Shown here: piece after piece, positions 40,871 to 51,381 of the stretch
Layout: each line of letters starts with the position of its first letter
Numbering within the stretch: position 1 is the first letter of the stretch
From: Psammoneis japonica
Lineage: Eukaryota
Direction: 5' to 3'
Length of the DNA: 51,381 bases
Assembly: GCA_008632985.1 (NCBI GenBank)
Contig: QPGO01000030.1
Location: 619,135-670,515, forward strand
The notes under the pieces: generated by a model
Database searches by the model: none
The model's input: only the letters and a program-made list of their open reading frames with translations
Told to the model about the DNA's origin: nothing
Position numbers and translations under genes: made by a program

Positions 40871-42075
40871 TGGGCTAAAATGGGGCAACGTTAAGAACTG
40901 CATGCAATAATGTAAATGAATCTTCGTAGCGCTTGCCAGATTCGTGCTACAGTAGGGGGCGTTTGAAAACTTGGTTTTCACGATAATACAACAATGTGTT
41001 AGAATACAAAAGCAGCCTATGCAGCATCAAGTATCGAAAAGCACTTGCATTGCCGTATACATGTTACTGACTTACATTGTTCTTGCCCATAGCTGGGGCT
41101 GCCACCGTTCAAATGCTCTTGCACAGGAGTCATACGTCATACCATTAAAGCCCATGAATTTCGGTGAAAATACCTCTTGTCGTCGGACCCCCTCCCATAT
41201 CGAGATTAAAAAAAAAGCCAACAATCGGCATGGAAGTCCTTCGCATGTTATTTTATTAGAATAAGCCCTGGAGGTGTACGAAAGTCGACGAAACAAGTGA
41301 GAAATGAAATACAAACCTCGTCGGCGATCGGTGATTTTGAGAGAAAAGCGTGCGAACTACTGCACTCCACGCTTTACGGTACGTCAGTAAAGCAAACAAT
41401 AGATAGATTTCGCACGGCGAGCCATCATAACGAAAAGTGGGACTTCTCCAATCTCTGTCCATTCCCACTCGCAGCACAAACAATCCTCAACACCGATAAC
41501 ATACCGGGTACCGGTAACGGTAACAAGATGATAGATGTCAATTTGTAGCGCCGCGCAACAGATAAGAACATAGGGCCCTATTTTGAAATATATTTGCATA
41601 TACTGTATGATAGCAACAGAAATACTTATTGGTTTTGATGTTTCGCTCTTTTTATCCCCCGTGAAGATTTTCGTCTGTTTTTTGTCCGTTCGTGCCCACA
41701 GGGGCACGAAAGGAGGCTACGTAGGACTGTACCAACAAATCCTGTAGATGCACGTTTCCATGCCAACAAGATTCATGAACCTCTCAAACGAAAAGAGACA
41801 ATGGCGTCGTTCTGGATCAACGCCGTAGTTGCTACGTCTGAAACCGCAGCGCGCCGCTTTTCTGCTCGTAGACTTGTACGCTGTCCTGGTGCAAAGGTCA
41901 TTGCATGCATGGAGTCTACGATGAGGTCATGCTGAAGGAAGAATTCTCGAATTTGAATTCTCAGCAATCAACCGAGTTTGTGTACTTTCTATTTTTTTAT
42001 GCTGCCAACCAAGTCTTACAATCACACATCCCTGATTCTACCTGCATGAGACGACACTGAGATTTCAGTCCATGC

Positions 42076-43335
42076 ATGAGTTCACTTGCACCAATGGATG
42101 AATCGGCGTTGCACTCGGTGACGACGTCCGAGTCAGATTGGGTGGAGCATTTCAATCCAACAGAGGACTTGAATTTTTGCGACGAGGATCTCCACTTGAT
42201 TGAGGACAGCTTGATGGATAAGTGTGACAGAACCGAGCAGTCAAAGGACCGTCCAAAATGGAAAGTGGACAATGATGGGAAAGATGTTAAGATTGCCTTT
42301 AGCCAAGCTCCCCAAAAGGTGTGGGAGACGGCCAAAGCCGAGATTCAGGGACATCGCGAGAGGGTGCAAAAACTTGCAGGAAAAGAGTTCAAATCGATTG
42401 ATCCCATTGAGGACACTGCGTTGCTGTTTGTGGGTGGTGCACGTCCTCTCATGCAACTTCTGGAGTCAGAGTTGTCGCTCAAGTTTCAAGAAGCTTCTCA
42501 ATTTCTTGCCACCTGCTGCAAGCAAAAGGCATGTCGGTTGTCAGTTGAAGAGTTGTGTGATGATGACGACATAAATTGTGCTGGGCCAATGACTGAAGAG
42601 AAGCACAAAATGGTGTGGAAGTCAATGGGCCGTTCAGGCGATGCGCCATCGTCAACGGCTCGTAAGAAAAAGCCACCCTGGGAAAAATTCCAAGACAGGT
42701 TCAACGAGACGTGTCAAGAAATAAATGTGAGCCAGTCAGCATCCTTGATTGTTTCATTGGACGAAGATAAAAAGAAAGCTGCAGTCAACAATGGAGATGA
42801 CATGCTGGGTCTGAAGCAGGTTGTGCATGCAGACAAGCGAAAGGGCATCGTCGGTCACACAGCCGTGTCCCCTGCAACTCTTTTGATGCACGGTGTTTGC
42901 TGGGAACGAGTGGGCGACACAACTTGTGATTGTCATGTAAATCTTGTTGAGACAACATTTGGATGGAGGCCAACGCTCGACCGAGTCACGTTTTGCTCTG
43001 ATCGCGGTTGTTGGACGATGAAGCTTCTCACATGCTTGCTCGAGAACGGAGCCGACATTCATGGGACGGTGAGGCGTCAGCATTGGCACCACTTTGCTTG
43101 TGACCAGACATTGAAGATCGGCGACCCCAGGGTTTTGATTGACACGACAGGGCTGGCAACACTTTGCACGGGGGCTGCATCGGTTTCGGAACGGAAAGTG
43201 GATATAAATGCTTTTCGAAACGGCACGAATGGCATGGTGTTGTCTATGTCAACTGTGTGTCATGGTGCCCCATTGGGATCTTGTCCCTCAAGGGGGGGAA
43301 AGAGCAAGTGTCAAAGCGTGTTCCACTTGTTTTAA
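42076..43335 (+). pseudogene. piggyBac-like DDE/DDD transposase, 3'-truncated and tyrosine-free
   Basis: IVSLDED, FCSDRGCW (cf. DRGY) and IHGTVRR in piggyBac-like order; no Tyr in 419 aa. Confidence 0.65.
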
Positions 43336-43699: not shown

Positions 43700-45170
43700 T
43701 CGGTCGCAAAAGCACCCCGGATGTTAAAGTGGGGACACCTGACAACTGCACAAGCACCCATCACCAAAGGCGAGGCAGCTGCACGCAAGGACAAGGAACA
43801 ACATGTGAGACAAAGTGCAACATGCAGACAAGATGCTTGTGCAGAAACAGAGTGTCTGGCCACTTCGCCGCTGGCTGCAAGAGGCACAGAGCAAGAAGAA
43901 GAAAAGCCAGAGGGGAGCAAAAGCACACACACACAGAGGAGAGTGGTGGTGTGTGTGCTTTGCCTTGAAGAACCTGTTGGAAGAGGCAAAGAAAATGCTC
44001 AGGTGATGCTGAGATCTGCCTCACAAAGAACTGTTTCAATGCACAGTCGATGACATGAGTGAAGTCAAGAAGCCACACACACACAAAAAGAGAAGCAAGT
44101 CAACTTGGCACAGCCTTGGCCAGGGTGGTGGCTCAAGAATGCACACAGTCACCTGCAAGGTGTCAAGCAGTGCAGAAAAAGCAACTTGGATTTTCAAGTG
44201 GGGCAAGCTGATGATTTTTCACAAAAGCACGACCATCACCAAAGGCAGCTGGGCTCAAGGACAAACAACAACATGTGTGGGGCAAAGTGTGGTGTGCAGA
44301 CAAAAGAAGTTTGTGCAGAAGCAGTGTGTCCAGCCACTGTGCTGATGGCTGCAAGAGGCAGAGCAAAAGAAGCCAGGGCAGCACTGTGTGCCAGGAGCTC
44401 CCACAGAGAGCCAGCCTCCCTGTGTCTTGAAGAAACAGGCAAAGGGGATGAACAAAATGCCAAAAGGGAAAATTGTGAGGCTGTTTTGGGTGCCAACAGC
44501 AAGAAGTTGAGACACTCTGCAGCACAACCCAGCAAGAGCTCATTGCCACTGCAGCAGGCCAGCCAAGCATGTGTTGTCCATGACCAACAAGCAGCACCCT
44601 GCAAAGTGTTTTCAGCCCCACTTTGGGCTGTGTGTGACCCAGTTGTTGTTGAGAGCTGCCTCACAAAAGAATGCTTCAGTGCTTGTCACTGAATCTCCAA
44701 GCACATGAAAGATGAAAGCACTGGAGTTTGCCAAAGATGTCATTGAGAGAGTGCAGGCATGATTTGCAGCTTTGGCGCAGAGCTCTCAGCACAATGCTTT
44801 GCAGACAGATGCCAAGATCATGAACAAGAGCAGCAGCACAGCAGCAGCAGCAGAAATCAGCTCTGTGTGTTGGAGCAGCAGCAAGCAGCCAGAGCAACAA
44901 AAAAAAGATGAAAAGAGCAGAAGTTCACAGCAGACAGGCAAGCAGCATCCTCTGAGGTGGCCAGAAATGATCTCCAGTGTGCGCTGTGGAGCACAAGGCA
45001 GGCATCAGCAGAAGCAGGCAGGGAAAGAAAACAAAGGCTTGCTTTTGTGAGGATGGCATGAGCATGGTCAAGAAGCCACACACAGAGAAGCAAGAAGCCA
45101 ACTTTGTGCAGCCTTGCAGCTTTGGTGCCAGGCAGTGGTTCAAGAGTGCACACATCATCATGCACGGCCA
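43700..45170. repeat. Diverged tandem duplication (~470-bp unit; second copy expanded by insertions)
   Basis: CCATCACCAAAGGC...GGCTGCAAGAGGCA at ~43758 and ~44233; CTGCCTCACAAA at ~44016 and ~44656; GTCAAGAAGCCACACACA at ~44064 and ~45067. Confidence 0.75.
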
Positions 45171-48100
45171 CTGCTTTTGTGAGGCACCAAGAGCAGCAGT
45201 GGTGCTGTGCTGGCCAGCTCCCAGCTGCAAGAGCTCAGCCTCTTGCACTGCCAACTTAGAGCACTTTGTGGCAGAGTTGAAAATCGAAATGCTTTGGTCA
45301 ATGTACACAGCATGGTGGCAGGAAGGAAGTGGGCAAAACAAGCTGCTTGTGAAGTGGGAGAGACAAGCTGAGACAGTGGGGCAAGCAACAGCTGACAATG
45401 GCAATTCTTTGTGCTCAAAATGCCTTCACTTTGCATTTTCTGTGTTCACTGTCGTGGTTGGTTGCGTTGGACTGGTGGCATTTGTGCCACAAGATCATCA
45501 TTCCGTGCACGCTTCACAATGATGGTTTGAAGCTGTGTTTGACTAAAACTTGATTAAAACGACAAAGGGGCAATGTGCGATGACTCTAAAAATTGCCCTG
45601 TTGAGCAAGTGACAAATTCGCCTTTGTGTGCGGCATGCCGGTGACCTTGAAATGTCCCACCCCTCATGTGTGACATAAATTTTATGCCGCACATGAGGTG
45701 CAATTGCTTGAAGGATGACCTTCCACGTCAGAGCTGTCATCATGATGCGCTTTTGCCCACACTGTTTGACGACCTGCAAAATTTTTGTGCCAAAATGTTG
45801 TTTTTTTTTTGGCAAGGCATTCGGGACTTGCACTCTGGACTTGCTGTTTGCTGTGCAATGGGAGTCATTCGGGTCCTGAGAGGAGTCATCACTTACAAAA
45901 AAAATTGTGCAGGAGAGTGCTAAAAACTATTGTCATCAGTCTGTCCATCCATCCGTGCACGAATGTCAACTTCTCGGGAAATCAATTGAAGTGCTGTCTG
46001 ATCGACGGCATTTTGATTCACACAGTGCAGTGAAGGCCAATGCCGTTGATCAGACAGCATTTCAATTCAGTTCCCAAAAAGTCATTGGCTCCAATCACTC
46101 TCTCGTGCAACACTGTGTGCATGTCTGCACGATTTTGAGTTTTTCCTTGTGCAAAATGTCAATTGTGACCCACGCGACATTTTCGAATGATTCCCATTGA
46201 GTCGTTTTCCTCATAAATTGCAACTTCCCAATGCAAACTTTTGACCATGCATTCGCACAGAATTCGCCAAGTCAAAAAAACACAAAAAGACGCAGGATTC
46301 TGCACGCAAATCTGGTGCAAAACGAATGCAAAGCTGCCCTGTTAACACCGCGGCAAAGCAAGCACAAATTGCCAACAGCTTTGATCACTTTGTTGTTGCT
46401 GCATTCTTCTTTTCATCATCCAACTGAACTGTTGTTGCCATGACATCACAGACCTCCGCATCAACTGCTGGTGCTGAGGTCGAGCAGCCAGAAAAACAAT
46501 TGAGTTTGCAATGGCTGCATTTCAATGTCCTCAAGGGAAGGTGAGGGTGGGCAAGAAGAAATGCCGGGGTGCAACTGTCAGTGTTGCACTGCACACTGCC
46601 ATCACCAAATGAGCATGATGTGATGCCAGTTTGTCTCAGGGTGGAAGAGTGGACTCCTGTGAAGGAGAAACCGAAACAAGCAGCACAGAAAAAAGTTCAG
46701 CCAACACTGATCGGATGCCATTGCATGCCCAGGACGAGTGCAGGAGTCACTCAGGCAATGGCGTGGTTCCAAGCCACAGTGGGCAAATCAATTGATTGTC
46801 ACAATTAAGTTTCAAGATGACGTTCATTTGGAAAGCACTGCAAGCAGCCGAAAAAGAAGCCACCAGTCATTGCTTTGCAGTTCGTTCCAAGCACTTTTTC
46901 AACAATGGGAACAAAGTCACTGTCTGTCCAGCAAAGCCATTGACTGCACAATGAATGAGAATGTCACTCTGGACATGAAATGCAAGCAACACCATAAAAC
47001 AACTTTGTCAGCCAGTGCATTTTGAATGTTCTGTGCAGACACGGGACCATCAAGGCAGACGCGAGACCAACAAGCCATTTCTGCATGTTGCAATTCAGTG
47101 TGACAGATGATGAAAGCAGTTGCACTGTTTTGTGCTGCAACTGCAAGACACAATGAAAGCAAGGTGCAAACAAGCCATCATGAACTTAACACATCAACAG
47201 CCAAAGCCACAGCACTCCAACAAACCTGCAGTGCCCAAATGCCACTTGCTGTCGACTCAGATCCAATTTGAAATGATCTCTCAGCTGTCCCATGGGGCAG
47301 CAAAATGTTGGCATGAGGCAGGGGTGCTTCATGTGTTGTGTCTTGCTGTTGCTTGCTCCTCTTGTTCAATCGCTCTTTTCTCCGACGTGTTGCTTTGGGA
47401 ACTTCCACAAATTGCTGACAATGGAGACACCAAAGTGGCGCCACTGATGATCTTCACAATGCTTGCACCCATCACCTCTTCCAGATTCCAATCAAGAGGC
47501 TTGTCCTCAAAGAGCCCAACCCTTGCAATCAAATGACCAACTGGTGTGTCTTCCAAACAAAGTTGACCAAGTGGACTTGCATGTTGCATCCTGCTGCTTC
47601 AACTTGAGGAAGAAGCTCCAAGAAGACAAGGGCCACGACGATCAAGGCAAGAACAACTTCCAGCAACATTTTTTCAGTTTGCCAATGTGGAGTGCCACGC
47701 ACATGATGCCTCACTTCCTGCCACAATGCAGTGTGAGACAGTTTGCTGCATTTGGTTGTAAAGGTTGCAATGAGATGGACCGCCACCACACCGCCCGACT
47801 TGACAAAGGAAAAATGTGCTGGACTTGCGCAGGATCCTGCGTGTTTTTGTGATTTTTCAACTTCTTGACATTTGTGGGATTAAGCAATCATTTGTTTGGG
47901 GGGGTGTTGCACGACTTTTCCATGGATGATGAAAAGGACTGTGCCAGAAGCAAGAAGACACAGAGACAGAAATTGTTGTCTGTCGCGCACAACCGTTCAA
48001 GCGACTTTTTTCATGCAGCTCTTGCATGTTGGTGCAATTTTTTTTGTCGTGACAACCAAGGGACAATTCTGCCTCTGTGGCAGTCATTTGCCATCTTTTG

Positions 48101-48231: not shown

Positions 48232-49362
48232 ATGGCCGGCATTTCTTTGCATGCCATCACCACCTTCTTGGGACCATTGCACAATGCAAACGGTGGTGTG
48301 CATCGAAATGGTGCACCCCACGATGTCCTGAAGAAGACAGAATTGGTGGAGAAGCACAAGGAGCTGTGTGACCACAATGAGGATGGATTGGAGCCGTCAC
48401 AGGTGGAGCTTGGACAAGCAGCAAAAGTCAGTGACAAGTGGGCCAAGAACAAGAAGGTTGTTGTGGAGCTTCAGAGTGAAGAGGGGCTCATTGATCCTTG
48501 CCATCAAAAGCCTTTGAGACACAGGGGGCTGGGAGCACTAATGCTTGACTTGGACGACACTGTTTGCTTGATTGCGCTTTGTTGTGAGAACCCTTCCCAG
48601 ATGCTAAGAAGCTGCCAGATGAAACTCTTTCATTGTGCTGGAACACTGCATCACAAAGCACACAACATCTCATGTGTTGCTTTGTGGCTTTCCACATTCT
48701 GCTGCTTTGAGGAAACCGAACTTGGTCCCCATTGACAAATTCCGACCCGACAATGTTGAAAGAGCCGCTGAACACCTTTGATTGATCATGCAACTTGACC
48801 ACCAGTGCATCAAGTTTGCTGATGAAAAATCTCTCAAAGGAACAAAGCTCTTCAACCAAAAAGTCCAACATGATCCACTCACTGGAGAAACACTGTCCAT
48901 TGCGATGGACTCTGACTTTCGCAATGTTTGCAACATTGCTGGCTTCTGTGGTGTCGACCAGTCTACCAACCCATTCTTTTCTGTCTAAATCAAGATGCCA
49001 ATGACTCTGTTGACTTTTTCATTGCTGTTGAAAAGGCCATTGTGCCAGGCTTTTTGAAGCCTCATGATGTGCTTGTTTGTGACAATGCACAGATCCATGC
49101 TGCTGGTGACAATGACATTTTGGATGAATGGTTGTGGCACAACTTTCAAGTTGGTCTGGTGCTCCTCCCACCCCGAGCCCCTGAGATGAACCCAACTGAG
49201 CTGCTGTGGAACTGTCTTGTGCAACGCCTTTTGTCTGCCAGTTGGGACAACCACCTTTTCTGGGGTGAGGACCGAGTGGCCTGCCATGCCGCAGCCATCA
49301 TGCGGGCATTCATGCACATGGGTGTGGAGTCCACGTGCCGCCACTGCAGCCACCAAGTCTAG
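48232..49362 (+). pseudogene. IS630/Tc1/mariner-superfamily transposase (DDE_3-like), frameshifted
   Basis: N-terminal HTH region, then IKFADEKSLKG and VLVCDNAQIH...LLPPRAPEMNPTELLW; 38 residues between the second D and the E as read here. Confidence 0.85.
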
Positions 49363-49699
49363 ATTGCAACAGGCAGAACTTGCACAAGCTGTGGATTTGG
49401 ATTGTTGTGTTGCAGTGTGGTGCAGAATGGCGCAGTGTAGAACAGAGTGCATTGTTCTTCAGTGCAGCTGGACCAACTCGTGCACTTCTGCTGAAGAAAT
49501 GAATGGTGCAAACACACCAGAGGGCAACACAAATCGAATTGCCCATGTGCCTTGCAAGACAAATGCTTGTGACAGTGCAATGTGGTGCATTGTGTTGGCA
49601 CTGCTCTGCTCCAGAGCTGGAGAGTTGCTCTGACTCTAGACTGGTGGCTGGCAGACACTGCCACTCAGTGGTGCTCTGCTCTAGACTGGCAGCAGGTGG

Positions 49700-51381
49700 C
49701 TGATGTCTGCTGCCACTGGCAGTGGTGGTCCAAACAGAAGCCAGAGCAATGGCAATTGCCTGTCAATGGTTTGCAATGAAAGTGTTGGGCTGTTGTTGGC
49801 CACCACTAAAAAAGAAGTGCAGCTTGGTTGAATGAGACAAGCTGACATGCTTGACTCGAAAGAAGAATTCAATGAAGTGCGCACTTGTGCAACAGTGCCA
49901 CCACACACAGAGCACTGACAAGTGAGGATGGCAATGAGCCGCACCAGCAAGACCAACCATTTGGGCAAGTCTGATGGAGTGGACGACAACACTGCCGAAT
50001 CTGCCAAGACATCCAAGGGGGTCAAAGCAACTGAAGCTCTGTCTTGGGAAGTGACGTGCCCAACCATTGTTTGGTTTTCAGAGACACAAGGCACCTCGGC
50101 ATTGGTCTGTTGGGATGATGGTGCAGAAGTGGAAGCTGGTTGAGCAGGCAAAAAAGCTGGAGTTGGAGGAGGTGCATTTGCATGCTCCAATGCCTGCTGT
50201 GGCTTTTCCCACGTCACATTGCCAGCTGCAGAATTGTGACAGAAGGGCTTGCTGCTGGCTGCATCAGTGCATTCCGTCCAGCCTTGGGGAAGCTGTTCTG
50301 GCAAGGCAGGTGGCAATGGCGGCTGCAGCACAGGATGGCATGCTTGTGGTGGCACAGGTGGCATCAGAGCTGGTCGAGGCACTTGCGGTGGAGGAGTTGT
50401 GGTTGGAACTGGACTGGGATTGGTCTGACTTCTTTCCCGGTGGCATCATTGCAGTGGCGCAACTTGCCACTTTCGCGATTGCAACATTGCCTCCAATCTT
50501 GGGCAGCATCAACATGAGGCACTGGAGGCAGAGGCTGGACAACAAGTCACGGCTTTTCCCAGCTTGCTGCTCCTGCAACAGTGCTGACATGGAACATCCT
50601 GTTGCTGGTGGTGTCACAGTGCTCACCCCAGCCTTGAGGGGGGGGGGGGGTGTTGGAATGGAGGTGGAGGTGCAGTCAAAGGCACAGTTGGAGGCATGGT
50701 CAGAGGTGGGGGCTGCACCAGCAGTGGCTTGTCCCACTTTGCTTCCCCTGTTGCATTGTTGCAACAATGCGGTTTGTTGCGCGTGCTGTTGCGTGCGACT
50801 CTCTGGCCCTGGGGAAGCTCGTCTGGTGACAGAGGTGGTGGCAGCAAACCGACACCAGCAGCAGAGATTGAGCTGCATGCATTGACAGAATCGCAAAAGC
50901 CAGCAACGTTGCTGCAACCACTGCCCAGTGTTTGCTGTCAAATGATCACACAGCAAGGCAACCAATGGGAGTTGGAACAACAGCAGTGCTTGTGGCACAC
51001 TGCACACAAAACACTCAAAATGAGAAGGATGAGACGAGACAACACCAACTTGCCATGCCTTCCATCATGCTGCCATGAGAGTCAAAATGGAGATGCCCCA
51101 GCCACGGCCTTGATTGTGTTGAGATGTGAGAGCACCCATGTGAACATTCTTGCCAGCTTGTTTTGATTCTACAGCTTCTTGTTTGAGCCGTGCTCTGTTC
51201 TCCGCTGCTTGCTCTGACAGCTGAGCTCCACTTTCCTGGAGAGCAAGTTTGTTTTGGAACTCTTGGTTCTTCTTTGCCATCTTTGCACACTCCACTGAAG
51301 CTTTGTTTGATGCTGCTTTCTCCTGCAGTTCCTTTTCAAGGCCAGACACTTGCTCTGACAGAAATTGAAGGCAAGTGGCAA
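49700..51381 (-). pseudogene. Decayed gene with coiled coil, Pro-rich linkers and two WW domains
   Basis: WW1 at 50817-50725 reads LPQGQRVARNSTRNKPHCCNNATGEAKWDKP; WW2 at 50292-50200 reads LPQGWTECTDAASSKPFCHNSAAGNVTWEKP. Confidence 0.8.

Follow-up and report, generated by a model that had tools for sequence, protein, structure and literature searches.

A Two-Gene Transposon at the Contig End

The window, by which we mean the whole 51,381-nucleotide stretch analyzed here, forms the final 51 kb of contig C30 in the 91.4-Mb genome of Psammoneis japonica, a genome with compact genes; C-numbers such as C4, C17, and C46 denote contigs of this same genome. TA steps stand at 0.00–0.17 of expectation at ∼1–21 kb and 42–51.4 kb of the window and at 0.36–0.77 in the stretch between ∼21 and 42 kb. 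CG drops together with TA in the TA-poor tracts, and CA/TG go up. A WW-domain gene copy, without a single TA at 50200–50817, sits within a roughly 9-kb TA-free domain. We read this locus as part of a TIR-bounded IS630/Tc1-like transposon that was TA-hypermutated after insertion, the WW copy being exon 2 of the transposon's second gene, ORF2, and we give this reading a probability of about 0.85. Its features are as follows.

47977..47978, minus strand: presumed target-site duplication of TA, reading CA on the minus strand in this copy (TA in C4, CA in C46, TG in other copies)
47979..48096, no strand: TIR of ∼115 bp at the transposase end, a 76% match to the C4 end; inverted pairs occur in the C12 and C102 copies
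48232..49362, plus strand: broken IS630/Tc1-like DDE transposase with stops and frameshifts (Pfam DDE_3, 36 bits, above cut-off)
49363..49956, no strand: spacer between the convergent 3′ ends of transposase and ORF2, common to C4, C17, and C46 and partly to C10 and C221
49957..50934, minus strand: ORF2 exon 2, a proline-rich tail with four WW repeats and two frameshifts, from alignment with C4, C17, and C46
50725..50817, minus strand: WW1, with HCC at 50769–50761 and CAG in place of the first Trp codon; 41.8 bits in the C4 copy, no Pfam match in the window
50550..50639, minus strand: WW2 (Pfam WW, 18.3 bits, E 0.0025; C17 copy, 40.1 bits)
50415..50507, minus strand: WW3, YYY in C17 and RHC in the window; no Pfam match in the window, 41.8 bits in the C17 copy
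50200..50292, minus strand: WW4, FYHN changed to FCHN (Pfam WW, 25.1 bits; C17, 48.7 bits; C4, 46 bits)
50935..51053, minus strand: predicted phase-0 intron of ORF2, 119 bp, from paralogues and from the relatives' donor at the same place
51054..51381, minus strand: 3′ end of ORF2 exon 1, charged and coiled-coil-like; matches element copies only (7/7)

The element is a TIR-bounded DNA transposon of the IS630/Tc1-mariner type, about 3.6–4.6 kb long, in which a transposase and ORF2 run inward from opposite TIRs. One TIR is present in the window, and the opposite one lies beyond the contig end, which truncates the element. Paired TIRs were found in the C12 and C102 copies, in 11 elements of the same genome, and in 9 of the 17 metagenome contigs tested, where they bracket the transposase together with the region downstream of it. 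TA adjoins the TIRs in C76, C32, C97, C4, C101, and C102; CA or TG does so in the window, C46, and others. The DDE transposase is of the IS630/Tc1 type by its above-cut-off DDE_3 match, and 38 residues separate its second D from the E (DD38E spacing). In profile searches, transposases of the family matched NF033545 at E 1e-10 to 1e-23, all below the 100-bit cut-off (the window copy, at E 5.5e-10, was also below it), and they are thus not bacterial IS630 proper. Thalassiosira is the sole organism named among 20 transposase matches.

ORF2 consists of an acidic N-terminus, a P-x-K motif, a long charged coiled-coil-like region, a G-x-F/W motif, a phase-0 intron, and a low-complexity tail that is lineage-specific and, in the window, proline-rich with four WW domains. 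A preliminary description of this DNA had counted two WW repeats, the second of which is our WW4. It had also placed a possible intron at 51053–51000 on the minus strand; its start and mutated donor were right, but its end was not, since the predicted intron runs 51053–50935 and closes with the acceptor CAG.

Next to the element, nearly all of 44000–47975 in the window consists of multicopy repeat. A MITE-like repeat of ∼345 bp with an internal inverted match lies at about 45850–46200 and is present 20 times or more in the genome. A 424-codon frame at 42061–43335 on the plus strand, without a meaningful Pfam match, resembles a partly TA-mutated transposase of another kind, perhaps piggyBac-like.

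Loss of TpA and CpG in the Window Copy

To represent the unmutated state, we used natural paralogues, C4 and C17, in place of an in silico reversion. A genome DNA search returned other copies of the WW region on C17 (86%), C4 (82%), and C46 (81%). The 1.9-kb core holds 96 TA in C4 and 93 in C17 and 5 each in the window and C46. Of the 53 TA common to C4 and C17, only 3 are retained in the window; the others now read TG (27), CA (21), or CG (2), in the TA>CA/TG direction that had been proposed. A>G change in the window affected 48 of 102 A's that follow T and 16 of 525 other A's (Fisher p 1e-29). By preceding base, it affected 3/157 after A, 8/220 after C, and 5/148 after G, with no excess after A (3/157 vs. 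13/368, p 0.41). CA was kept at 116 of 121 sites, and TA was lost at 50 of 53. The window copy has lost ∼94% of its TpA by A>G on either strand, at about one hit per site, and its loss counts are lower bounds, because C4 and C17 are themselves lightly mutated (25 and 13 TA differences, respectively; 38 TA-vs.-CA/TG sites between them). The spacer zone retains 4 of 52 C4 TA sites.

The statement that surrounding CGs survive did not hold in general. Of 56 shared CG, the window keeps 19, and 36 of the 37 lost now read TG or CA, so that about two-thirds of its CpG has gone by C>T. TG and CA are exchanged for one another at 6 of 232 window sites; these flips suggest passage through TA or CG, either in repeated rounds or as older shared hits.

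At 40 sites compared between the window and C46, the same TG/CA outcome was found at 24 (p 0.27), consistent with the two copies having been mutated independently. Independent outcomes and the alteration of the target-site TA itself place the mutation after insertion, as the preliminary description had it. In a sister subfamily of seven copies, TA is gone from 97 of 97 positions, and the YYY triplet reads HCC in two, CCC in four, and CC-stop in one.

The TA steps that survive lie mostly in TAA and TAxA contexts: the A was mutated in 33 of 119 cases when A comes next and in 124 of 206 when C comes next. Such survival fits flanking preferences, as an enzyme would give. Three of the 10 TA left in the window element lie in TCTAGA (49360, 49637, and 49682), the transposase stop codon included. 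Protection of TCTAGA as such (7/143 surviving TA vs. 18/2798) was considered and set aside, as it forms part of the wider survivor bias and several of the seven sites are homologous.

Effects on the WW Exon

TA loss removed Tyr codons of the WW binding surface, the GT donor, the branch point, and the stop codon of ORF2. In WW1, the sequence CCG CAT TGT TGC AAC is present at 50772–50758 on the minus strand, as reported, and had been taken as a rewriting of YYY to HCC. Two of these codons did change in this copy, but the third, TGC, is common to all four copies (C4 reads CCG TAT TAT TGC and C17 CCG CAT TAT TGC). Because the sister gene on C121 reads YYY, Tyr is probably ancestral at the third codon as well, and that change would be older than this copy. 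The cleanest rewriting of YYY is in WW3, where C17 has TAT TAC TAC and the window CGC CAC TGC. With 94% loss per site, mutation of all three TA in a triplet has a probability of 0.84 and is the expected outcome, nothing special.

The EC and FCHN noted earlier are likewise present in the repeat at 50292–50200. EC, however, is not a change of this copy: the Cys occurs in 3/3 copies that have the codon, and five of six fetched WW repeats of an unmutated host gene on C82 are natively EC. That host frame (C82:273890–277978, minus strand) has 2796 codons and at least 13 WW repeats, several of them natively EC. FCHN derives from the FYHN of C4 and C17, not from FYYN, since the His is native; it is natural in other WW genes too, with C121 and one host gene reading YYHN. 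The donor GCAAGT that begins at 51053 was correctly traced to GTAAGT, which both C4 and C17 keep. Both also have the branch point CTAAC and the stop TAG, where the window has CCAAC (50975–50971) and TGG (49959–49957).

The WW repeats of the TA-rich copies are recognized by profile: those of C4 and C17 score 31.9–48.7 bits against a cut-off of 26.9 (PF00397). In the window, two repeats score 25.1 and 18.3 bits, and the other two give no match. WW1 there lacks the first Trp and carries HCC, and WW3 combines RHC with a frameshift ahead of the second Trp; an intact pair of Trp with a central aromatic run was not found in the window copy. The first Trp codon of WW1 (50805–50803, minus strand) is CAG in the window and TGG in C4 and C46. 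The proposed search for an intact paralogue yielded the TA-rich "before" copies C4 and C17, but both are frameshifted, and no intact member of the subfamily was found. Since frameshifts break the window copy and also the TA-rich C4 and C17, TA mutation is not established as the cause of inactivation.

Limits of the Mutated Region

We summed TA per 100 bp over 16 element ends chosen for nondepleted flanks, excluding ends that abut other repeats. Going outward, the counts were 5, 14, 28, 37, 60, and 40 inside the elements and 90, 72, 60, 68, 65, and 62 outside. TA loss is centered on the element interior and fades over the last 100–400 bp. The hypermutation is restricted to A:T>G:C at TpA and, as judged from these 16 ends and from 27 host WW loci of normal TA (found by a search biased toward intact domains), is confined to mobile DNA. 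For this locus, these flanks and the repeat at 44000–47975 speak against the earlier proposal that the process acts on any DNA inside the domain; because that stretch is a multicopy repeat, the tested domain contains no host DNA on which the proposal could be checked.

Nine young elements have 36–62 TA and 168–215 CG left, compared with 154 TA and 217 CG in a spared element on C217. With about two-thirds or more of their TA lost relative to C217 and their CG kept, the young elements indicate that TA loss precedes CG decay. The spared element (C217:30651–34679; L209) is TIR-bounded, with an open transposase, a Gln-rich ORF2, and normal TA, and lies beside a TA-free block; it is the best candidate that we saw for a live or recent copy. 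At C46:394955–402873, ∼7.9 kb of TA-free DNA splits ORF2 exon 1 of the C46 copy as a nested insertion. A GC-rich tandem array of 7.4 kb with a period of ∼264 bp lies at C4:624186–631638 (L015).

A Lineage of Elements with a Conserved Second Gene

With a full-length relative as query, many further transposases were found in the genome. Among these, 11 TIR-bounded elements of 3.6–4.6 kb each carry a second, convergent ORF. Read by eye from translations, the ORF2 tails are proline-rich with one WW in C32, C97, C2, and C14; Arg/Ser-rich in C43, C76, C132, C170, C96, and C22; and Gln-rich in C217. WW genes lie tail to tail with a transposase in four more divergent TIR-bounded elements (C32, C97, C2, and C14) and in the seven-copy sister subfamily.

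A metagenome scan returned 68 loci, none of them TA-free (ratios 0.35–0.99). In 24 of these loci the sequence continues for 900 bp or more beyond the transposase; an antisense coiled-coil-like ORF is present in 11 of the 24, and a sense ORF of this kind in 0. By eye, 28 metagenome loci showed RS, Q-rich, RGG, Gly/Met, and WW-like tails. WW-like stretches, detected by our own profile in 5 of the 68, are degenerate (by Pfam, L152 scores below cut-off, and L135 and L141 give no match). The common layout runs from an acidic start through a coiled-coil-like region to a phase-0 intron, after which the tail varies (WW, RS, Q-rich, or RGG); here, "coiled coil" stands for a composition proxy and weak family matches.

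In 24 hand-picked ORFs whose donors were located by eye, the donor after the charged region is GTRAGT in phase 0 in 16 and GCAAGT in 3 (the window, C2, and C14); it lies 1–6 codons on in 4 and is frame-shifted in 1. A blind donor screen was weak, with a phase-0 donor in 6 of 11 ORFs and donors in other phases in 3. The two distant elements whose ORF2 donor is likewise GCAAGT are at C2:410774–414409 and C14:235620–239230.

Both exons of ORF2 are under purifying selection: dN/dS was 0.14–0.40 for ORF2 (six comparisons) and 0.09–0.19 for transposases, and one antisense control gave 1.06. There is good support for ORF2 being a gene, conserved as the second one of an IS630/Tc1-like lineage. ORF2 exon 1 of C2 and C32 is 38% identical over ∼400 aa. 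Between the two main clades, homology of ORF2 is weak by sequence (hhalign probability 15.7%, E 0.0017, 19 columns; reversed controls, E 0.08–0.1), and the case for it depends chiefly on position, layout, and intron. In a transposase tree of 31 rows, all family members, WW tails form one well-supported clade and occur again in the window's subfamily within the other clade, with other tails interleaved, a pattern that suggests exchange of tails among lineages. Searched by phmmer against 1.84 billion representatives, the window's exon 1 gave one match, a repetitive, unrelated-looking protein that we set aside. C2 exon 1 reached a best score of 0.81 in the ESM Atlas, with no family, and serves as a lead only. 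Pfam found no catalytic domain in ORF2.

Origin of the WW Gene

All four close copies of the WW gene are in, or derived from, one transposon type. In three of the four, the gene lies within TIRs together with a transposase, and C17 retains the transposase's last ∼50 codons. Three C12 copies are the same element minus the part corresponding to window 49252–51186. The question of whether the gene is transposon cargo is answered to this extent: it lies within a TIR-bounded element, opposite the transposase. What had been called a host-type gene is a conserved ORF of the element family.

We fetched 30 of the genome's 67 WW matches, in a search that favors intact domains. Twenty-seven of the 30 loci are host domains with TA ratios of 0.43–0.70 and no transposase within 1.5-kb flanks, and among the 30 there was no host donor with DNA similarity to the WW gene. 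When the C4 WW fragment was compared with longer proteins, none of 5094 candidates passed, which is weak evidence. Two loci were rejected as host donors: C17, which carries the transposase 3′ end and is frameshifted, and C121, which joins a C32/C97-type transposase start (77%) to a sister-subfamily WW part (79%). The C121 locus (C121:150336–151103, plus strand; L054:4336–5103) is a single-copy, TA-normal, 256-codon frame with the transposase start and two intact WW domains; it is a chimera of two element parts, possibly on its way to domestication.

Two other accounts of the gene must be weighed against this. In one, a duplicated host WW gene was caught as a bystander in a hypermutated domain, the mutator acting on any regional DNA. 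WW domains and a spliceosomal intron are indeed host-type features, the copy does lie in a TA-free domain of roughly 9 kb, and 24 Pfams of likely host origin are reported in TpA-depleted genes of Bigelowiella natans (bioRxiv 10.64898/2026.01.13.699255). The gene is nevertheless surrounded by TIRs and a transposase, with a transposase remnant even at C17; it has no donor among the 30 fetched loci; the neighboring 44000–47975 is itself a repeat; and flanks are spared at 16 ends. It was not found outside a transposon or with a nonelement parent. For this locus, the host-gene reading is wrong and largely refuted, and we regard the bystander account as barely credible. The other account, Pack-type capture, in which the WW exon is recent and passive host cargo of a nonautonomous element and plays no role for the transposon, is very improbable. 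It would explain why tails vary so widely across lineages and why WW tails occupy two separate clades of the transposase tree, where more than one capture is possible, and copies on C12, C221, C54, and C15 did multiply without the WW part. Those copies, however, arose by internal deletion and have no intact transposase either. Purifying selection acts on exon 2 as it does on exon 1 (dN/dS 0.14–0.29), a selection seen in relatives that does not suit a neutrally decaying host fragment; by predicted splicing, the WW exon is joined at a shared intron position to an exon 1 found only in the elements; and WW tails occur across transposases that are merely ∼35–50% identical.

Candidate Mechanism and Role of ORF2

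For the mutation process, we lean somewhat toward a deaminase-like mutator acting at silenced chromatin, with a separate and slower loss of CpG by methyl-cytosine decay. A TpA-specific A-to-G DNA mutator would be brought to silenced element chromatin; as it removes TA, it would erase TAA and TAG stops, and gene damage would come through loss of Tyr and of splice signals. ORF2, for its part, may be a helper protein with a docking tail, a proposal that we hold tentatively and at below even odds. WW, RS, and RGG modules bind transcription and splicing factors. The coiled coil would oligomerize, the tail would dock on proline-rich or RS-type host transcription/splicing factors, and either the element would be kept expressed or the transposase would be brought to transcribed chromatin. 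A broader picture, which we consider unlikely, is of an undescribed two-gene lineage in diatoms and other marine microeukaryotes whose ORF2 would be a coiled-coil scaffold with exchangeable tails that mimic host transcription and splicing factors; by recruiting this machinery, it would shield the element from silencing and thereby from the TpA mutator; the mutator, in turn, would disable ORF2 through its tyrosines, GT donor, and branch point.

TA might instead be lost through error-prone repair, with polymerase-eta-like synthesis at WA after T:G mismatches that arise from methyl-cytosine decay. A polymerase-eta signature predicts that A>G rises after A, and A>G is not raised there; young elements, moreover, have lost most of their TA and kept their CG. 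Although TA and CG loss coincide in old domains and diatom transposons are methylated through DNMT5 (PMC9998398), new mutations in B. natans fall on TpA only (bioRxiv 10.64898/2026.01.13.699255), and we judge repair improbable beside the deaminase-like mutator. As for ORF2, it could be a transposase partner or chaperone for integration, in the manner of mudrB, or a negative regulator, its tails being mostly neutral spacers. The convergent two-gene layout as in maize MuDR (PMC3440606) argues for this, as does the fact that the most constant part of ORF2 is the region ahead of the intron. The tails, however, hold recognizable binding modules (WW) under selection, and WW number increased to four in the window's subfamily, which makes such a role somewhat unlikely.

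Relation to Known Systems

The closest published process is that of B. natans, where TpA>TpG/CpA changes on both strands are limited to regions of integrated NCLDV and virophage DNA; DDE and reverse-transcriptase domains are enriched in TpA-poor genes there, and a deaminase is proposed but unproven (bioRxiv 10.64898/2026.01.13.699255). The changes described here are likewise TpA-specific transitions, on both strands and region-limited. They differ in being near-saturating (94%), in a diatom, read out from paralogue pairs, bounded by single DNA transposons of 2–4.6 kb, and accompanied by CpG decay; the terms "diatom," "CpG," and "WW domain" are absent from the accessible text of that preprint (bioRxiv 10.64898/2026.01.13.699255). 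A likeness to fungal RIP lies in repeat-directed transition mutagenesis that ruins element genes. RIP creates TpA, and its hallmarks of C>T at CpA and a TpA excess were not found here. RIP makes C>T (bioRxiv 10.64898/2026.01.13.699255), whereas here TpA is destroyed and stops are erased, not made.

The element resembles IS630-Tc1-mariner (ITm) transposons in its DDE_3/IS630-like transposase, its TIRs, and its TA target-site duplication (PMC7325037). Typical ITm elements have a transposase only; this one adds a second, convergent, intron-bearing gene and has DD38E spacing in the window copy. ITm elements with several genes are known, namely the ciliate TBE and Tec elements and Mariner with Fanzor1, an endonuclease, or a methyltransferase (PMC7325037, PMC3627910), and the present element shares with them an ITm-type transposase plus additional ORFs. 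In those elements the additional ORFs encode zinc-finger, recombinase, nuclease, or methyltransferase proteins; ORF2 instead has interchangeable low-complexity tails. Maize MuDR (mudrA/mudrB) also has two convergent genes, with promoters in the TIRs and a second protein of unknown function (PMC3440606), but its transposase belongs to another superfamily. A literature search, with Repbase and most subscription journals outside it, found neither a TA process in diatoms nor a diatom ITm element with a coiled-coil/WW second ORF, nor any account of the two-gene family described here.

Implications

The mutation process is of a known kind, published for B. natans; the novelty lies in a second gene that is conserved in an IS630/Tc1-like lineage. 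When a domain of "host type" turns up in a TA-free tract, it is not necessarily host DNA, and lists of host-origin domains drawn from TpA-poor genes may contain transposon accessory genes. Paired copies quantify the process: the loss takes 94% of TA, is strictly TpA-specific, fades at element ends, and runs ahead of CG loss. These figures narrow the mechanism and extend the B. natans result to a diatom. Tc1/mariner-type elements are textbook one-gene transposons, and the role of MuDR's mudrB is a long-open question about accessory transposon proteins. A testable case of such an accessory protein is provided by this widespread lineage, in which the second gene is under selection and its tails, of RNA-processing type, are exchangeable.
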